Notes under the pieces: model-generated
Told to the model about the DNA's origin: nothing
Seen by the model: the letters and a program-made list of their open reading frames with translations, nothing else
Databases searched by the model: none
Virus record (IMG/VR): IMGVR_UViG_2534681978_000024
Strand: one strand, 5' to 3'
DNA length: 4,302 nt
Origin: a virus
Lineage: Duplodnaviria; Heunggongvirae; Uroviricota; Caudoviricetes
Made by a program: the position numbers and the translations under genes
In this document: piece after piece, positions 1-4,302 of the stretch
Layout: every line of letters begins with the position of its first letter
Numbering within the stretch: the first letter of the stretch is position 1

Positions 1-38
1 GTATTTCGAGAAGGGGCTTGCAAGCTGAGTTAACAGAA

Positions 39-1097
39 ATGAAAACGGGGCTGGTGCTGTCCGGCGGCGGGGCGGTGGGCGCTTATCAGGCGGGAGTGGT
101 TAAGGCACTGGCAGAGTGTGGGGCACAGATCAGTATGGTTTCAGGGGCCAGTATCGGGGCTCTCAATGGTGCCATTATCGCGGCTTCTCCCGATTTGTCA
201 GAAGCTGCCGCACGCCTGGAGGCGCTCTGGGAGCATCTGGGGAATAATCAGGTGCTGTCGGTAAACCGATCGGTTTACTTTTCATTGCTGAAAAAATTGT
301 TCCAGGCAATGAACCTCTGCCAGATCCCCGGACGTGCAGGAGTACTGCTTACGACGCTTTTTCGCCATATATCGACAATCAACGGGTTCGAAAATCTGAT
401 GACTCAGCCGTTGTTGTCAGATGAGCCCCTGACAGCGCTGATGGATCATTATCTTGATACTGATGCTCTGGCAGACGGGCTACCGCTGTATGTGTCGCTG
501 TACCCCACAGAAGGAGGCATGCAGGATATTATTGACTGCATTCGTGCTGAACTGGGTGCCGGAACCACGAAAAACGCCGTTTTTCAGCATATCCAGAGCC
601 TGCCCCGCGGACAGCAGAAAGAGGCTCTGCTTGCGTCAGCCGCACTGCCCCTGCTGTTCCGTCCCCGTGAAGTTCAGGGAAAAATGTACGGTGATGGTGG
701 TATGGGAGGATGGCGAAATATGCAGGGAAATACCCCTGTAACGCCTCTGGTCGATGCCGGATGCAATATGGTGATTGTGACACATCTGAGTGACGGTTCT
801 TTATGGGATCGCCAGGCTTTTCCGGACACCACAATCCTTGAGATCCGTCCCCGGAAAAGACTGAAACATGCAGGTGATGGTGGCAACAGCGGCGGTCTGC
901 TCAGTTTTACATCGGCACATACCGACGCCTGGCGTCAGCAGGGCTATGAAGACACGATGCTGACGATGGAGCATATCCGGAAACCGCTGGCAGCACGTCA
1001 GGCACTGACCCGGTCAGAAACGGTGTTGCAGAAAAGTCTGGAGAAAACGGAAGAGGCAGATTCGGCACTGAGAAACGCGATGGCCCGACTTAAATAA
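39..1097 (+). CDS. Patatin-like phospholipase (serine lipid hydrolase, patatin/PNPLA family); start taken as ATG at 39, the ORF track starts at TTG 18 and the frame is open to the window edge
   Basis: Seen in translation: glycine-rich oxyanion loop GLVLSGGGAVGAYQAG close to the N-terminus, nucleophile elbow G-A-S-I-G (GxSxG, Ser codon agt at 150-152), and catalytic Asp in YGDGG (gat at 693-695). This trio is the established signature of the patatin Ser-Asp dyad fold. Single long ORF of 359 codons, with a roughly 100-residue C-terminal region lacking recognisable motifs. No strong Shine-Dalgarno before either candidate start. Confidence 0.85.
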   Translation: MKTGLVLSGGGAVGAYQAGVVKALAECGAQISMVSGASIGALNGAIIAASPDLSEAAARLEALWEHLGNNQVLSVNRSVYFSLLKKLFQAMNLCQIPGRAGVLLTTLFRHISTINGFENLMTQPLLSDEPLTALMDHYLDTDALADGLPLYVSLYPTEGGMQDIIDCIRAELGAGTTKNAVFQHIQSLPRGQQKEALLASAALPLLFRPREVQGKMYGDGGMGGWRNMQGNTPVTPLVDAGCNMVIVTHLSDGSLWDRQAFPDTTILEIRPRKRLKHAGDGGNSGGLLSFTSAHTDAWRQQGYEDTMLTMEHIRKPLAARQALTRSETVLQKSLEKTEEADSALRNAMARLK

Positions 1098-1113
1098 AGA
1101 CGCTCCGGAGAAA

Positions 1114-1139
1114 CGCCACCGCCTGTGGTGGTGTTTTTC
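1114..1139 (+). terminator. Weak candidate intrinsic terminator downstream of the phospholipase gene
   Basis: Short imperfect GC stem (gccacc ... ggtggt, about 5-6 bp) followed by a T5 run at 1135-1139, 17 nt after the stop codon at 1095-1097. The stem is short, so this is tentative. Confidence 0.35.
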
Positions 1140-1148
1140 TGGCTGGTG

Positions 1149-1160
1149 TTATTGAAAATA
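1149..1160. repeat. Left copy of an 11/12-identical direct repeat (ttattgaaaata) at the left edge of the AT-rich cassette
   Basis: ttattgaaaata at 1149-1160 versus ttactgaaaata at 3116-3127. Each copy sits immediately after a terminator T-run and at the point where base composition switches between GC-rich and AT-rich. Confidence 0.4.
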
Positions 1161-1225
1161 TTTTCAGATATATATTACCTGGACGATGGTTAAGATTAAT
1201 TTATTTAATTTTGGAGAGAAAACTC

Positions 1226-1684
1226 ATGAAACTGTTAAACATTCTTTTATCTGTTGTTTTAACTGTAAGTGCAACCGTCGCACAAGCAGAATCGGCATTG
1301 TGGAAGCGTAACAGTGTTGCCGGAACTGATATGTTCAGTATTGGTAATGTTTCTATTAACTGCACGACTAATCCAGAAGACAACAATTTGCTACCGCACT
1401 ATGTGTGGATTTACGGTCATACCCCCACCCCGCTAAATCAGTACGATTCTGATATCATTTTTATCATCAACGGTAAAGAGTATCCGGTCCCACCTGTCGA
1501 CGGAACACGAATGAATGAGAACAAATGGGTACACTTTATCGATGCTATCGGTGAAGCCACGAAGTTCGACGTTTTAGTAAACGGTAAGAAAGTCGACAGC
1601 TATACCACAAATATCAAAAATGTGAAAAAGACTTTGGGTAACAAATTCTACGGCAGTTGCTGGAGCACCTGGTTCCAGGAATAA
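1226..1684 (+). CDS. Hypothetical small secreted/periplasmic protein (about 152 aa precursor with N-terminal Sec-type signal peptide)
   Basis: ATG at 1226 preceded by Shine-Dalgarno GGAGAG (1213-1218, 7-nt spacer); the ORF track begins upstream at TTG 1211, but ATG 1226 with this RBS is the likelier start. N-terminus MKLLNILLSVVLTVSATVAQA-E has a positively charged n-region, hydrophobic core and AxA cleavage motif. Mature part about 131 aa with two Cys. AT-rich codon usage. No family recognised. Confidence 0.75.
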   Translation: MKLLNILLSVVLTVSATVAQAESALWKRNSVAGTDMFSIGNVSINCTTNPEDNNLLPHYVWIYGHTPTPLNQYDSDIIFIINGKEYPVPPVDGTRMNENKWVHFIDAIGEATKFDVLVNGKKVDSYTTNIKNVKKTLGNKFYGSCWSTWFQE

Positions 1685-1809
1685 TTGATAACGTGGTGTA
1701 AAACACCTCAGTTTAATTTAATACAGTGAGTGAAAATGAATATCATAAAAATATTTTCTGCTTCAGATGTCACATATTTTATTAACTGAATGATTAACAG
1801 GAGAATCAG

Positions 1810-2349
1810 ATGAACTGGCATTATGAAAAAAATGGTGTACGTTATGATAACGTAACAGAGGAAGATATTATTGAACGTATCCGCCGTGGTGAACTGAATG
1901 CATCAACACTGGTGTGGCAACAGGGCATGCTGGAATGGCAGCCAGTTTCAGCCACATCACTGGCGGAAATACTGAAACAAAGTGAAGTTCCTCCGGCCCT
2001 TCCGGGTCACCGCATTCCCGGAGGCGTTGTCTGGACGCTGGCATTTGCCCCTTTGATTGGATACATACTTGAGATGTGGACTGCCGGGCTGAACGGTATG
2101 TCATTTGAACGGGCTTATGATGCAGTCAGCGAAGGCCAGTACTGGTTTATCTCTCTGATTCTGAATATTGCTCTGGGATATCTGGATGAACGAAAACTCC
2201 GTAAATCTGGCGTGGATACCACAGCATTTGGCTGGCTGGCATGGTTGATCCCGGTTTATCTGTGGCGTCGGGCAAAAATCCTCGGGCAAAAACCTGCTTA
2301 TTTCTGGGTCTGGTTGGTTATGCTGATACTGGTGTTATTTACGGTCTGA
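1810..2349 (+). CDS. Membrane protein: N-terminal GYF-like (DUF4339-type) soluble domain fused to about four predicted transmembrane helices
   Basis: ATG at 1810 with Shine-Dalgarno AGGAG (1799-1803, 6-nt spacer). N-terminal roughly 50 aa (NWHYEKNGVRYDNVTEEDIIERIRRGELNASTLVWQQGMLEWQPVS) match my recollection of the bacterial GYF-like/DUF4339 consensus (W-x-Y ... NG ... TLVW-x-x-GM-x-x-W-x-P). C-terminal half has four hydrophobic stretches (VVWTLAFAPLIGYILEMW, YWFISLILNIALGYL, AFGWLAWLIPVYLW, AYFWVWLVMLILVLFTV) separated by charged loops. Confidence 0.8.
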   Translation: MNWHYEKNGVRYDNVTEEDIIERIRRGELNASTLVWQQGMLEWQPVSATSLAEILKQSEVPPALPGHRIPGGVVWTLAFAPLIGYILEMWTAGLNGMSFERAYDAVSEGQYWFISLILNIALGYLDERKLRKSGVDTTAFGWLAWLIPVYLWRRAKILGQKPAYFWVWLVMLILVLFTV

Positions 2350-2455
2350 TATTCTTTATCGCAGAGTTTACTAAATAATCAGGTTATTAGTGTTCTTAAC
2401 AGGTAAATGATGTTCATCATGGAACGGATATATTTTATTTGATTCAGGAGACAGT

Positions 2456-2604
2456 CAGAAACATAGTATAAATATATCGCCATGTTGAAGGTCATATCTT
2501 CAGGTATTTGTTTAATAAACAAGTCGGGGGTTAATCCTGACCTCTCGAGTGGATTATAAGTATTGCAGAAACAGTTTTTATACTTTTATTTAATATCAGA
2601 AACA
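2456..2604 (+). repeat. Three direct copies of the octamer CAGAAACA in the intergenic region upstream of the 2619 gene (candidate regulator-binding repeats)
   Basis: CAGAAACA at 2456-2463, 2566-2573 and 2597-2604, the last copy abutting the Shine-Dalgarno of the downstream gene. Seen directly in sequence; significance not computed. Confidence 0.3.
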
Positions 2605-2618
2605 ATGGAGTAATTATC

Positions 2619-3032
2619 ATGAAAAATATCATCACTATTTTAATGATTGCAGTTATCAGTTTCTTTACTGCTAATGTATCAGCAAACAATGCCGTTCCTT
2701 TACCAACCAACCTGACTGATGTTACTGACGGTACAGAATTCTGGTGTCAGGGTACTGATACTATCGACGGAGGTTGTGAATACCTGGGCACATCCAAAGA
2801 CATGCAATACGGTCTGGTACACGCCATGGGGGGTACAGCGTGCTGGGATGGTTTATACGGCGTAATTAATTTCTATACCGGTAAAGCCCAGACCATCAAA
2901 TACAACAACAATCAAAGTTGTGAAGGCAACATCACCGCCAGTTTCGTTACCCTGAAAAACGGTAAACCGGGCGTTAAACTTTACGACAATACGATTCATA
3001 AGGTTGTCGGGCTTGACGAAATCAAATTTTAA
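2619..3032 (+). CDS. Hypothetical small secreted protein with four cysteines (137 aa precursor, Sec-type signal peptide)
   Basis: ATG at 2619 with Shine-Dalgarno GGAG (2607-2610, 8-nt spacer). N-terminus MKNIITILMIAVISFFTANVSA-NN has a typical signal peptide with VSA cleavage motif. Mature part about 115 aa with four Cys (two possible disulfides). Followed by a strong intrinsic terminator. No family recognised. Confidence 0.8.
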   Translation: MKNIITILMIAVISFFTANVSANNAVPLPTNLTDVTDGTEFWCQGTDTIDGGCEYLGTSKDMQYGLVHAMGGTACWDGLYGVINFYTGKAQTIKYNNNQSCEGNITASFVTLKNGKPGVKLYDNTIHKVVGLDEIKF

Positions 3033-3082
3033 TGTATGAATTATAGTATCTTATCTGCGCGTTATTAATATCAAATGTAAAT

Positions 3083-3117
3083 AAAGCCCCGGCCATTATG
3101 GCAGGGGCTTTATTTTT
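3083..3117 (+). terminator. Rho-independent terminator for the 2619-3032 gene and the AT-rich cassette
   Basis: Hairpin aaagccccggcc / attat loop / ggcaggggcttt: an 11-bp stem with one G-A mismatch (3083-3094 pairing with 3100-3111), followed by a-ttttt (3112-3117), about 50 nt after the stop codon. Confidence 0.75.
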
Positions 3118-3127
3118 ACTGAAAATA
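3116..3127. repeat. Right copy of the 11/12-identical direct repeat (ttactgaaaata) at the right edge of the AT-rich cassette
   Basis: See left copy at 1149-1160. Located at the transition from AT-rich back to GC-richer sequence, overlapping the end of the terminator T-run. Confidence 0.4.
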
Positions 3128-3375
3128 CATGACGGGCTGTACATTACTTTTATTTTCCGAAGACCCTTTCTCACGCAAACAGACAGTTGCTGTCATAACA
3201 GCTTACCGCAATGTGTTTATCCAGGAATGCATTTCCGGCGGATTATCCGCAACGCGGAAGGTCAGCGACGCTGGCGCTGCCGGAATTCTGAACCCGATGT
3301 AGGCAAATAACTTAATGCGTGGCTCACCAGTGAAGGGCTTCCCGGACAATAAACCTCATTCATTTCACCCATCAG

Positions 3376-3406
3376 GCCGCGTCTTCTCCGGGAGACGCGG
3401 CTTTTT
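3376..3406 (+). terminator. Orphan strong terminator-like hairpin with no obvious upstream CDS (possible sRNA 3-prime end, or terminator of a decayed gene)
   Basis: Perfect 9-bp GC-rich stem gccgcgtct (3376-3384) pairing with agacgcggc (3393-3401), 8-nt loop, immediately followed by T5 (3402-3406). + strand orientation (T-run follows the stem; no A-run precedes it). Confidence 0.55.
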
Positions 3407-3442: not shown

Positions 3443-4261
3443 ATGCGATTAGCAAGTCGTTTTGGTTATGCGAACCAGATACGCCGTGACCGTCCGCTGA
3501 CACATGAAGAGCTGATGCACTATGTACCCGGTATTTTTGGGGAAGACCGGCATACCTCCCGCAGTGAACGCTATACGTATATCCCCACCATCACCGTGCT
3601 GGAAAGTCTGCAGCGGGAGGGCTTTCAGCCCTTCTTCGCCTGTCAGACCCGCGTACGTGACCCGGGCCGCCGGGAATACACCAAACACATGCTGCGTCTG
3701 CGGCGGGCCGGAGAGATAAACGGAGAACATGTCCCTGAAATCATTCTGCTCAACTCCCATGACGGTACCTCCAGCTACCAGATGCTGCCGGGTTACTTCA
3801 GATTCGTCTGCCAGAACGGCTGCGTCTGCGGTCAGTCTCTGGGAGAAGTGCGTGTTCCGCACCGGGGAAACGTGGTGGACAGGGTCATCGAAGGGGCTTA
3901 CGAAGTGGTGGGCGTTTTTGACCGGATTGAGGAAAAGCGTGATGCCATGCAGTCGCTGGTCCTGCCGCCACCGGCACGCCAGGCGCTGGCACAGGCGGCA
4001 CTGACTTACCGTTATGGTGACGAACATCAGCCCGTCACCACCACTGACATTCTGACGCCACGACGCCGGGAGGATTACGGTAAGGACCTGTGGAGTGCTT
4101 ATCAGACCATCCAGGAAAATATGCTGAAAGGCGGGATTTCCGGTCGCAGCGCTAAAGGAAAACGTATCCACACCCGTGCCATTCACAGCATCGACACGGA
4201 CATTAAGCTCAATCGCGCATTGTGGGTGATGGCAGAAACGCTGCTGGAGGGTATGCGCTGA
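3443..4261 (+). CDS. DUF932-family protein (YfjQ/YafZ-like, conserved in CP4-type prophage and integrative-element cargo regions)
   Basis: ATG at 3443 with strong Shine-Dalgarno AAGGAG (3431-3436, 6-nt spacer). 272-aa ORF beginning MRLASRFGYANQIRRDRPLTHEEL, which I recognise from memory as resembling the E. coli YfjQ/YafZ DUF932 family (not database-verified). Stop TGA at 4259-4261 overlaps a downstream ATG (4261-4263). Confidence 0.8.
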   Translation: MRLASRFGYANQIRRDRPLTHEELMHYVPGIFGEDRHTSRSERYTYIPTITVLESLQREGFQPFFACQTRVRDPGRREYTKHMLRLRRAGEINGEHVPEIILLNSHDGTSSYQMLPGYFRFVCQNGCVCGQSLGEVRVPHRGNVVDRVIEGAYEVVGVFDRIEEKRDAMQSLVLPPPARQALAQAALTYRYGDEHQPVTTTDILTPRRREDYGKDLWSAYQTIQENMLKGGISGRSAKGKRIHTRAIHSIDTDIKLNRALWVMAETLLEGMR

Positions 4262-4302
4262 TGCCTTTCCCTGAAGCGCAGTTCTGACTCATGTCCGTCC
4301 TG

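Follow-up and report, generated by a model that had tools for sequence, protein, structure and literature searches.

A patatin-like phospholipase gene at the end of an Escherichia coli O104:H4 contig is almost certainly the third gene of a dynamin-YjcZ-patatin operon, a candidate GTPase-gated effector module

In Escherichia coli K-12, RdcA is a dynamin-like "trigger" GTPase whose GTP-bound form is cytosolic and inactive; a fall in GTP (Km ~0.6 mM) or competition by (p)ppGpp shifts it to the membrane, and there the diguanylate cyclase DgcE is activated through the RdcA C-terminal domain (PMC13463826). RdcB is a stable partner of RdcA and promotes higher-order assembly (PMC13463826; PMC6510439). 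Dynamin-like proteins are also the components of Eleos (LeoA and LeoBC), which consists of two consecutive dynamin-like genes and needs its GTPase motifs for defence (Millman et al. preprint). Here we analyze a window of 4302 bp (IMG/VR record IMGVR_UViG_2534681978_000024), which is the entire length of one draft contig of E. coli O104:H4 str. 01-09591 (HUSEC41), and the patatin-like phospholipase gene that it carries at positions 39-1097. This gene is almost certainly a member of a three-gene operon that encodes a dynamin-like GTPase, a YjcZ-family protein and the patatin (hereafter the trio), and the first two genes have been lost from the window through the contig end. The existence of the trio has been noted once in print: a 2026 transcriptome paper reported that its genes showed the strongest up-regulation in E. 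coli MP1 lysogenic for Kapi1, and the authors, who classed it as a putative dynamin defence system, stated that the literature offered them no connection of bacterial dynamins with phospholipases (PMC12922286). All features of the trio given below for the window lie on its plus strand.

We examined two near-identical E. coli loci in which the operon is complete, one at tRNA-Ser (L001) and the other at tRNA-Ile (L002). The patatin is the third gene in both. The genes encode a dynamin of 798 amino acids (aa; 16725-19121 in L001), a YjcZ or "RdcB family" protein of 301 aa (19118-20023) and the patatin of 356 aa (20020-21090), with 4-nt overlaps at both junctions. A scan for consensus elements placed a promoter-like site with an extended -10 in front of the dynamin gene and, in the window, a terminator-like hairpin with a T-run (1117-1141; hairpin 1117-1133) that would close the operon. 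The dynamin matched Dynamin_N (E = 2e-18) and, end to end, the NCBIfam model of CrfC (the same protein as YjdA and RdcA), and its GTPase motifs G1-G4 (GTMKAGKST, PNRNRPMT, DTPGPNE and NKFD) are intact in seven taxa. The middle protein matched Pfam YjcZ with 235.7 bits against a cut-off of 27. Its model (predicted local distance difference test, pLDDT, 79.7) is helical throughout; one helix spans 105 residues, and the C-terminus forms a small domain. Foldseek returned no related solved structure (best E 2.1), and a sequence search of the PDB returned nothing meaningful.

The first two genes of the trio are of the RdcA/RdcB operon type, that is, a dynamin-like GTPase gene followed by a gene for a YjcZ-family partner with a 4-nt overlap, as in K-12. 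They are not orthologues of the K-12 pair, however. The dynamin scored 557 bits against the CrfC cut-off of 1146, and the locus is a different one, not next to proP. Because the K-12 rdcA-rdcB pair precedes proP without a patatin, and because the identities to RdcA and RdcB are 33% and 31%, the upstream genes are a mobile paralogue of that pair. Whereas K-12 RdcAB belongs to the core genome and acts on an unlinked MASE1 diguanylate cyclase, DgcE, the island pair is mobile and has a lipase encoded with it, which is sometimes fused to it. The C-terminal domain of the island dynamin is the region most divergent from RdcA, in which the same domain binds the output. The co-encoded lipase argues for an output other than DgcE.

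The first bases of the window bear on its assignment to this operon. The complete genome closest to the window is FORC_069, with 99.4% identity. Indels between the two are confined to positions 1-32 and 4265-4298 and are of the homopolymer type, while the interior differs by substitutions only; the sequence at both ends of the window is unreliable. In FORC_069 the patatin ATG overlaps the stop of the upstream gene (GCATGA), and the same junction is garbled in the window, whose exact 5' junction string occurs in none of the 126 loci that we fetched. Since this string was absent from all of these loci and the indels cluster at both contig ends, we rejected the divergent junction as a real allele and treated it as a sequencing error. 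Contig-end errors have corrupted the canonical ATG in the window, an ATG that forms ATGA with the upstream stop, and the patatin start is uncertain there for that reason. Mechanically, the open reading frame (ORF) runs from a TTG at 18 to 1097, but this TTG is unlikely to be the real start. No in-frame ATG occurs before position 39, and intact relatives start at an ATG four codons upstream of it, overlapping the YjcZ stop. Bases 1-33, read in frame 1 and aligned to L001, are the 3' end of the upstream YjcZ/RdcB-like gene, with a TAA stop at 31-33, degraded by the same errors. An exact-sequence look-up of the window patatin found no identical entry in the collection searched.

The sequence-only reading of the window had proposed a stand-alone, single-gene effector or toxin, with no recognizable sensor beside it and perhaps a sensing region built into its own C-terminus. 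The window by itself fits such a proposal, as no partner gene is visible within its 4302 bp and the C-terminal helix of the protein (see below) is conserved. The description as stand-alone fails, however, on the inspection of upstream sequence that the same reading had advised: the window, a truncated contig, opens with 33 bases of a YjcZ end, and the complete loci all carry the dynamin and YjcZ genes upstream. Of 5426 complete E. coli genomes, 2499 (46%) carry the patatin at a coverage of at least 80% and 2443 (45%) carry the whole 4.4-kb trio in one place, so that in this species the patatin is almost never found without its partners (~98% of its carriers have them). The same holds for nearly all distant relatives with upstream DNA, and fusions of YjcZ to the patatin exist. 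We consider a patatin that acts alone through a built-in sensor to be highly improbable. The dynamin/YjcZ pair is the obvious candidate for its sensor or regulator. The earlier statement that the activation mechanism was not known survives in changed form: partners are present upstream, but they are not those of a known, validated system such as CBASS (antiphage signaling based on cyclic oligonucleotides), and the claim of a single-gene effector without a sensor has to be dropped.

Outside the complete loci described above, the trio is found in many hosts. E. coli carriers include O157:H7, relatives of O104:H4, ATCC 25922 and uropathogenic strains. Full-length homologues of the patatin (~355 aa, 46-67% identical) are spread across Enterobacterales, Vibrio and Pseudomonas, and the same gene order, usually with overlaps, is found in Pectobacterium versatile, Vibrio vulnificus, Pseudomonas fluorescens, Providencia, a Joint Genome Institute (JGI) metagenome, Methylomonas koyamae and Allochromatium. 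Another complete genome shares the order, with no gene called at the YjcZ position. In Methylomonas koyamae, an extra ORF of 99 aa lies between the dynamin and YjcZ genes (L127, 8617-8916).

We also ran tblastn, with four versions of each protein as queries, against 111 loci from metagenomes and IMG/VR. Patatins that were at least 34% identical and had upstream DNA nearly all had YjcZ and then dynamin upstream; those at or below ~33% identity had neither. We rejected the latter, generic patatins as relatives, including the Clostridium and Rikenellaceae loci (L005-L007), and assign them to a different subfamily. There were two apparent exceptions to the gene order. In the first, L041, a middle ORF of 312 aa matched Pfam YjcZ weakly, below the gathering score, and we rejected this locus as a real exception, attributing it to the sensitivity limit of tblastn; the second, L043, stays an apparent exception. 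One IMG/VR locus (L094, 5090-7056) holds YjcZ and patatin with no detectable dynamin upstream and is a degenerate copy.

Evidence for a joint function came when we searched 1.84 billion representative proteins exhaustively with aa 222-352 of the patatin, which gave 300 clusters at E ≤ 1e-3. Nearly all are 335-390 aa long, match at the C-terminal end and have the same architecture. Four matches of 657-707 aa, mutually 27-38% identical, instead begin with a YjcZ domain and end in a patatin whose motifs are intact, the two being joined by a low-complexity linker. P0360, P0364, P0369, P0402 and P0417 are the identifiers of fusion proteins, and L129 (81-4410) is a fusion locus. The two fusion genes that we examined, P0360 and its 38%-identical relative P0417, lie directly behind a dynamin gene of 782-783 aa and overlap it, and the unit is thus one of dynamin, YjcZ and patatin. 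By their architecture the fusions appear to be a two-gene variant of the module, and they constitute classical Rosetta-stone evidence, which suggests that YjcZ and the lipase act together.

The lipase itself appears to be intact. Pfam Patatin (PF01734) matched the ORF product with E = 4.2e-26 (92.8 bits versus a cut-off of 27.7). We judged the invariance of residues, numbered from the ATG at 39, on an alignment of 68 full-length homologues that are 47-93% identical. G9, G10, G11 and G14 are invariant in the oxyanion loop GGGAVG (63-80; aa 9-14), as are G36, S38 and G40 in the GxSxG nucleophile elbow GASIG (144-158; Ser38 codon 150-152) and D219, G220 and G221 in the DGG motif with the catalytic Asp219 (693-701). 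These are the three patatin hallmarks that the sequence-only reading had named, and its S45 and D226, counted from the TTG at 18, correctly denote Ser38 and Asp219; the canonical protein has the two as Ser42 and Asp223. The protein is apparently a catalytically competent phospholipase of the patatin type, with an intact Ser-Asp dyad and oxyanion loop. Among E. coli homologues, truncated patatin alleles of ~200-260 aa form large clusters (P0017, P0022, P0029, P0048 and P0081), some of them mis-named "ferredoxin reductase", and at a Shigella flexneri locus (L004, 7001-7600) only the C-terminal 200 patatin residues are left.

In an AlphaFold2 model built on the same alignment (mean pLDDT 77.6, predicted template modeling score 0.76), the patatin core reaches to about residue 270 and has a low-confidence, indel-rich cap at residues ~70-125. 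Its last strands are formed by an invariant, clade-specific block after the DGG motif (GGW..QGNTP..PL..GC..V.HL..W.R..F..E.RP; 705-851), seen in both alignment and model. A glycine-rich linker follows (852-908; residues 272-290), which is predicted to be flexible and disordered; it is poorly conserved, and its pLDDT stays below 50 from residue 278 to 290 (mean of a 10-residue block, 38). It includes GDGGNSGG, whose lack of conservation and position within this linker led us to reject it as a second catalytic or nucleotide motif. Model and alignment agree on a single continuous helix of 60 residues at the C-terminus (912-1091; aa 292-351), with a block-mean pLDDT of ~77-94 to residue 350. Of the ~100 C-terminal residues previously described as an uncharacterized extension, those up to ~271 thus belong to the patatin core and GDGGNSGG to a poorly conserved linker, but the last 60 are indeed a conserved helix specific to this clade.

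The C-terminal helix has conserved residues at W298, at Q301-G302-Y303 and D305-T306 (QGY.DT) and at R320, followed by a heptad-like stripe (L323, S326, L330, S333, L344, M348 and L351), a pattern that suggests a helix-helix interface. Because the YjcZ-patatin fusion proteins retain this helix, it is not merely a tether for YjcZ. Candidates for its partner are the C-terminal domain of the dynamin, the protein itself through self-association, and the membrane. With the post-DGG block and the C-terminal helix in the window patatin, the last 33 bases of YjcZ upstream of it, and full trios both in 99.4%-identical loci and in distant taxa, we assign the window patatin to the trio with near certainty.

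The solved folds nearest to the patatin model are PlpD (Foldseek E 2e-10), CapV, CapE, VipD in complex with Rab5, and ExoU; patatin-17 was found as well. CapV, CapE, VipD and ExoU, but not PlpD, are cofactor-gated lipases, and on the strength of the model they may serve as a precedent for a gated lipase, with no claim of membership. PlpD, a protein of the Pseudomonas aeruginosa type Vd secretion pathway and the best match to the core (hmmsearch E 5e-18), is an autotransporter passenger with POTRA and beta-barrel domains, and the trio patatin has neither. CapV and CapE have the patatin fold and Ser-Asp dyad in common with the trio lipase (Foldseek E 1e-6 to 1e-7). They are cytoplasmic lipases of defence islands that stay inactive until licensed, and the trio lipase may be likened to them from its genes and model. 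We rejected CBASS as the identity of the system, as no CD-NTase (cGAS/DncV-like nucleotidyltransferase) is present in the loci examined, where dynamin and YjcZ lie upstream, and CBASS_lipase scored 20.2 bits against a cut-off of 200; in the patatin, the PADLOC phospholipase models reach no further than the N-terminal 65 residues. While the licence in CBASS is a cyclic nucleotide, the likely activator of the trio lipase would be a protein GTPase complex. A housekeeping patatin such as RssA was rejected too (32 bits versus 272), since the gene sits in variable islands at tRNA-Ser and tRNA-Ile and in 46% of E. coli genomes. The view that the protein is neither CapV nor a housekeeping patatin is upheld by these scores. 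Membership in VpdC was rejected on an NCBIfam score far below the cut-off.

Eleos resembles the trio in being an operon with a dynamin-family GTPase in defence islands. It has two dynamin-like genes and no enzymatic effector, however, whereas the trio has one dynamin, a helical partner that is not a GTPase, and a lipase. We rejected Eleos as the identity of the trio because LeoBC matched the dynamin marginally (23 bits, E 9e-6), LeoA did not match it, and the second gene encodes YjcZ rather than a GTPase.

VipD with Rab5 in Legionella and ExoU with ubiquitin in Pseudomonas are patatin lipases that are on only with a protein cofactor, which for VipD is a GTPase, and their core folds are similar to that of the trio patatin. 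Both are secreted proteins of 550-700 aa with C-terminal cofactor- or membrane-binding domains of their own and are activated by host proteins; the trio patatin, in contrast, has ~355 aa, is cytoplasmic and has a self-encoded GTPase partner. The similarity in fold, together with the presence of the locus on pathogenicity-type islands such as PAI-CFT073-aspV (PMC12922286), would be expected of a secreted virulence phospholipase. A related proposal is a vesiculation aid of the LeoABC kind acting on host cells, given that LeoABC dynamins were first linked to toxin release (Millman et al. preprint). We found no signal peptide, chaperone or secretion-system linkage, however, the targeting domains at the C-termini of ExoU and VipD are absent from this short protein, and the trio is also found in environmental, non-pathogenic taxa (Methylomonas, Allochromatium). 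A role against host cells is very unlikely in our assessment.

We then consider the genomic setting. In E. coli, the place of the trio is fixed: it comes directly after the gene for a small GTPase of the YeeP/YfjP type in CP4-type islands (L001 and L002, 15635-21090), with DUF932, antirestriction, RadC and CbeA/CbtA genes downstream. The cargo further upstream varies, being a ter cluster in one locus and a type I restriction-modification system in the other. This setting, a CP4-type genomic island, agrees with the earlier placement of the patatin gene in mobile-element cargo. The DUF932 gene reported to adjoin it does lie downstream in the window, at 3443-4261, but is ~2.3 kb away. The trio is chromosomal: 7 plasmid records carry it, and neither the trio nor a patatin homologue was found in 50,697 phage genomes, on which counts we rejected a phage or plasmid origin.

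In other genera, the trio has different neighbors. In Vibrio, its neighbors include the BREX (bacteriophage exclusion) genes for BrxL and PglZ, with a WYL regulator directly upstream; regulators of the BrxR-type WYL class are neighbors in Pseudomonas, Providencia and L126, and McrBC, WYL and PDDEXK genes are neighbors at a further locus. The 55 neighboring ORFs that we took from 11 diverse metagenome loci include WYL/WCX regulators at four of the loci (in one case just a WCX fragment), reverse transcriptases of the Drt type at two, and one PADLOC candidate (PDC-S11). A WYL-type regulator lies within 10 kb at roughly half of the distinct loci from outside E. coli. WYL/BrxR-type regulators near the trio are located at 3682-4650 in L010, 355-1362 in L033, 1752-2624 in L012, 947-1882 in L124, 13964-14983 in L125, 11176-12084 in L126, 10927-11829 in L030 and 9376-10218 in L044. 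They are sometimes immediately upstream on the same strand and are candidate transcriptional regulators of the operon.

A fixed place in CP4-type islands beside antirestriction, RadC and CbtA/CbeA genes is also what one might expect if the trio served its element rather than the host, stabilizing or protecting the island as an addiction-like toxin under GTPase control or excluding rival mobile elements, with no host defence against lytic phages. Its strong induction by a resident prophage (Kapi1), its absence from the phage genomes and its near absence from plasmids fit this explanation. Against it, the trio of other genera lies outside such islands, beside BREX, McrBC and WYL regulators, and no antitoxin-like small partner is present. 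We regard a purely element-serving module as quite unlikely.

We hypothesize, with moderate confidence and by analogy with RdcA, that the trio is an effector module in which a GTPase switch licenses a membrane-degrading lipase, probably for defence against phages or other mobile genetic elements. That the dynamin/YjcZ pair gates the lipase is, on the same analogy, probable; for a biological role in defending against phages or other mobile elements, we judge the odds to be even. The pair would act as sensor and scaffold and the patatin as output. In healthy cells, the pair would hold the lipase inactive. Upon a disturbance of the membrane, or of nucleotide or energy status, such as phage infection might cause, dynamin and YjcZ would assemble at the inner membrane and, in analogy with RdcA, license the lipase to hydrolyze phospholipids, and the infected cell would be killed or permeabilized, amounting to abortive infection. 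Regulatory contacts are likely to be made by the C-terminal helix and by the variable cap (aa 70-125). The conditional role as a toxic or defence effector that had been proposed from the window remains plausible in this setting.

The strongest competing explanation is one of membrane maintenance without cell suicide, in which dynamin and YjcZ remodel or reseal the inner membrane like Bacillus subtilis DynA and the patatin supplies lysolipids or removes damaged lipids, the outcome being stress tolerance or delayed lysis. Dynamin-like proteins do remodel membranes, and DynA delays phage lysis, according to passages in PMC12922286 and in the Millman et al. preprint that cite it. None of the three proteins has a transmembrane segment, and high prevalence with a backbone-like position in E. 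coli would suit a low-cost function. RdcA, however, the nearest relative with a known mechanism, is a signaling switch and not a remodeller, the nearest lipase folds include cofactor-gated killers, and the frequent truncation of the patatin suggests a cost. We consider membrane maintenance improbable.

Several observations weigh against a GTPase-gated defence module. Truncated patatin alleles are frequent, and decay of the lipase gene appears to be common. The trio is very common in E. coli (45% of genomes, up to five places per genome) and has a fixed position, and it behaves like part of the island backbone rather than like hypervariable cargo. Its contexts in Methylomonas and Allochromatium are not rich in defence genes; in the latter (L128, 6551-13623), the trio lies with Uma2 and Fic genes between ileS and lspA. 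These two are usually adjacent core genes, and the region looks like a small insertion islet. No model in PADLOC-DB v2 recognizes the trio. The authors of the transcriptome study suggested the reverse direction of control, with the lipase assisting the GTPase (PMC12922286). Finally, our literature searches found no functional study of the trio and no experiment that ties it to phage resistance, toxicity or lipid hydrolysis.

In the rest of the window, positions 1100-3100 are AT-rich (GC 35-42%, versus 51-56% in the patatin gene) and hold three small ORFs unrelated to the trio. Those at 1226-1684 (152 aa) and 2619-3032 (137 aa, Cys-rich) have signal-peptide-like N-termini and no family match, and the one at 1810-2349 encodes a GYF_2/DUF4339 N-terminal domain and a hydrophobic C-terminal half. 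A frameshifted DUF905 remnant at 3122-3303 is annotated as a pseudogene in related genomes. A strong terminator-like hairpin (3374-3403; 13-bp stem with 8 GC pairs, T-run) lies just 5' of the DUF932 gene, whose product is identical to EGR59929.1 of E. coli O104:H4 str. 01-09591. An Rfam scan of the window found no RNA family.

The trio joins known kinds of system, namely dynamin-linked defence, cofactor-gated patatin effectors and RdcAB signaling, and is not categorically new. A bolder proposal, which we offer as doubtful, is that it is a new immune or suicide module in which a dynamin trigger GTPase reads GTP/(p)ppGpp, the energy state or membrane perturbation and licenses the lipase through a YjcZ scaffold to destroy the inner membrane, with RdcAB-DgcE, the biofilm switch of E. 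coli, being a domesticated relative of the mobile module. In practical terms, the window is a warning that members of an operon can pass for orphan genes on short draft contigs. Nearly half of complete E. coli genomes carry this functionally uncharacterized operon. If gating of the lipase by the dynamin/YjcZ pair is true, a phospholipase licensed by a protein GTPase would join cyclic nucleotides, ubiquitin and host Rab5 among the triggers of suicide effectors, and the YjcZ/RdcB family, which is poorly understood, would acquire another output, one amenable to mechanistic study. A concrete enzymatic effector would then tie dynamin-like proteins of bacteria to immunity, a tie that is still sought for Eleos and Mx-type proteins.

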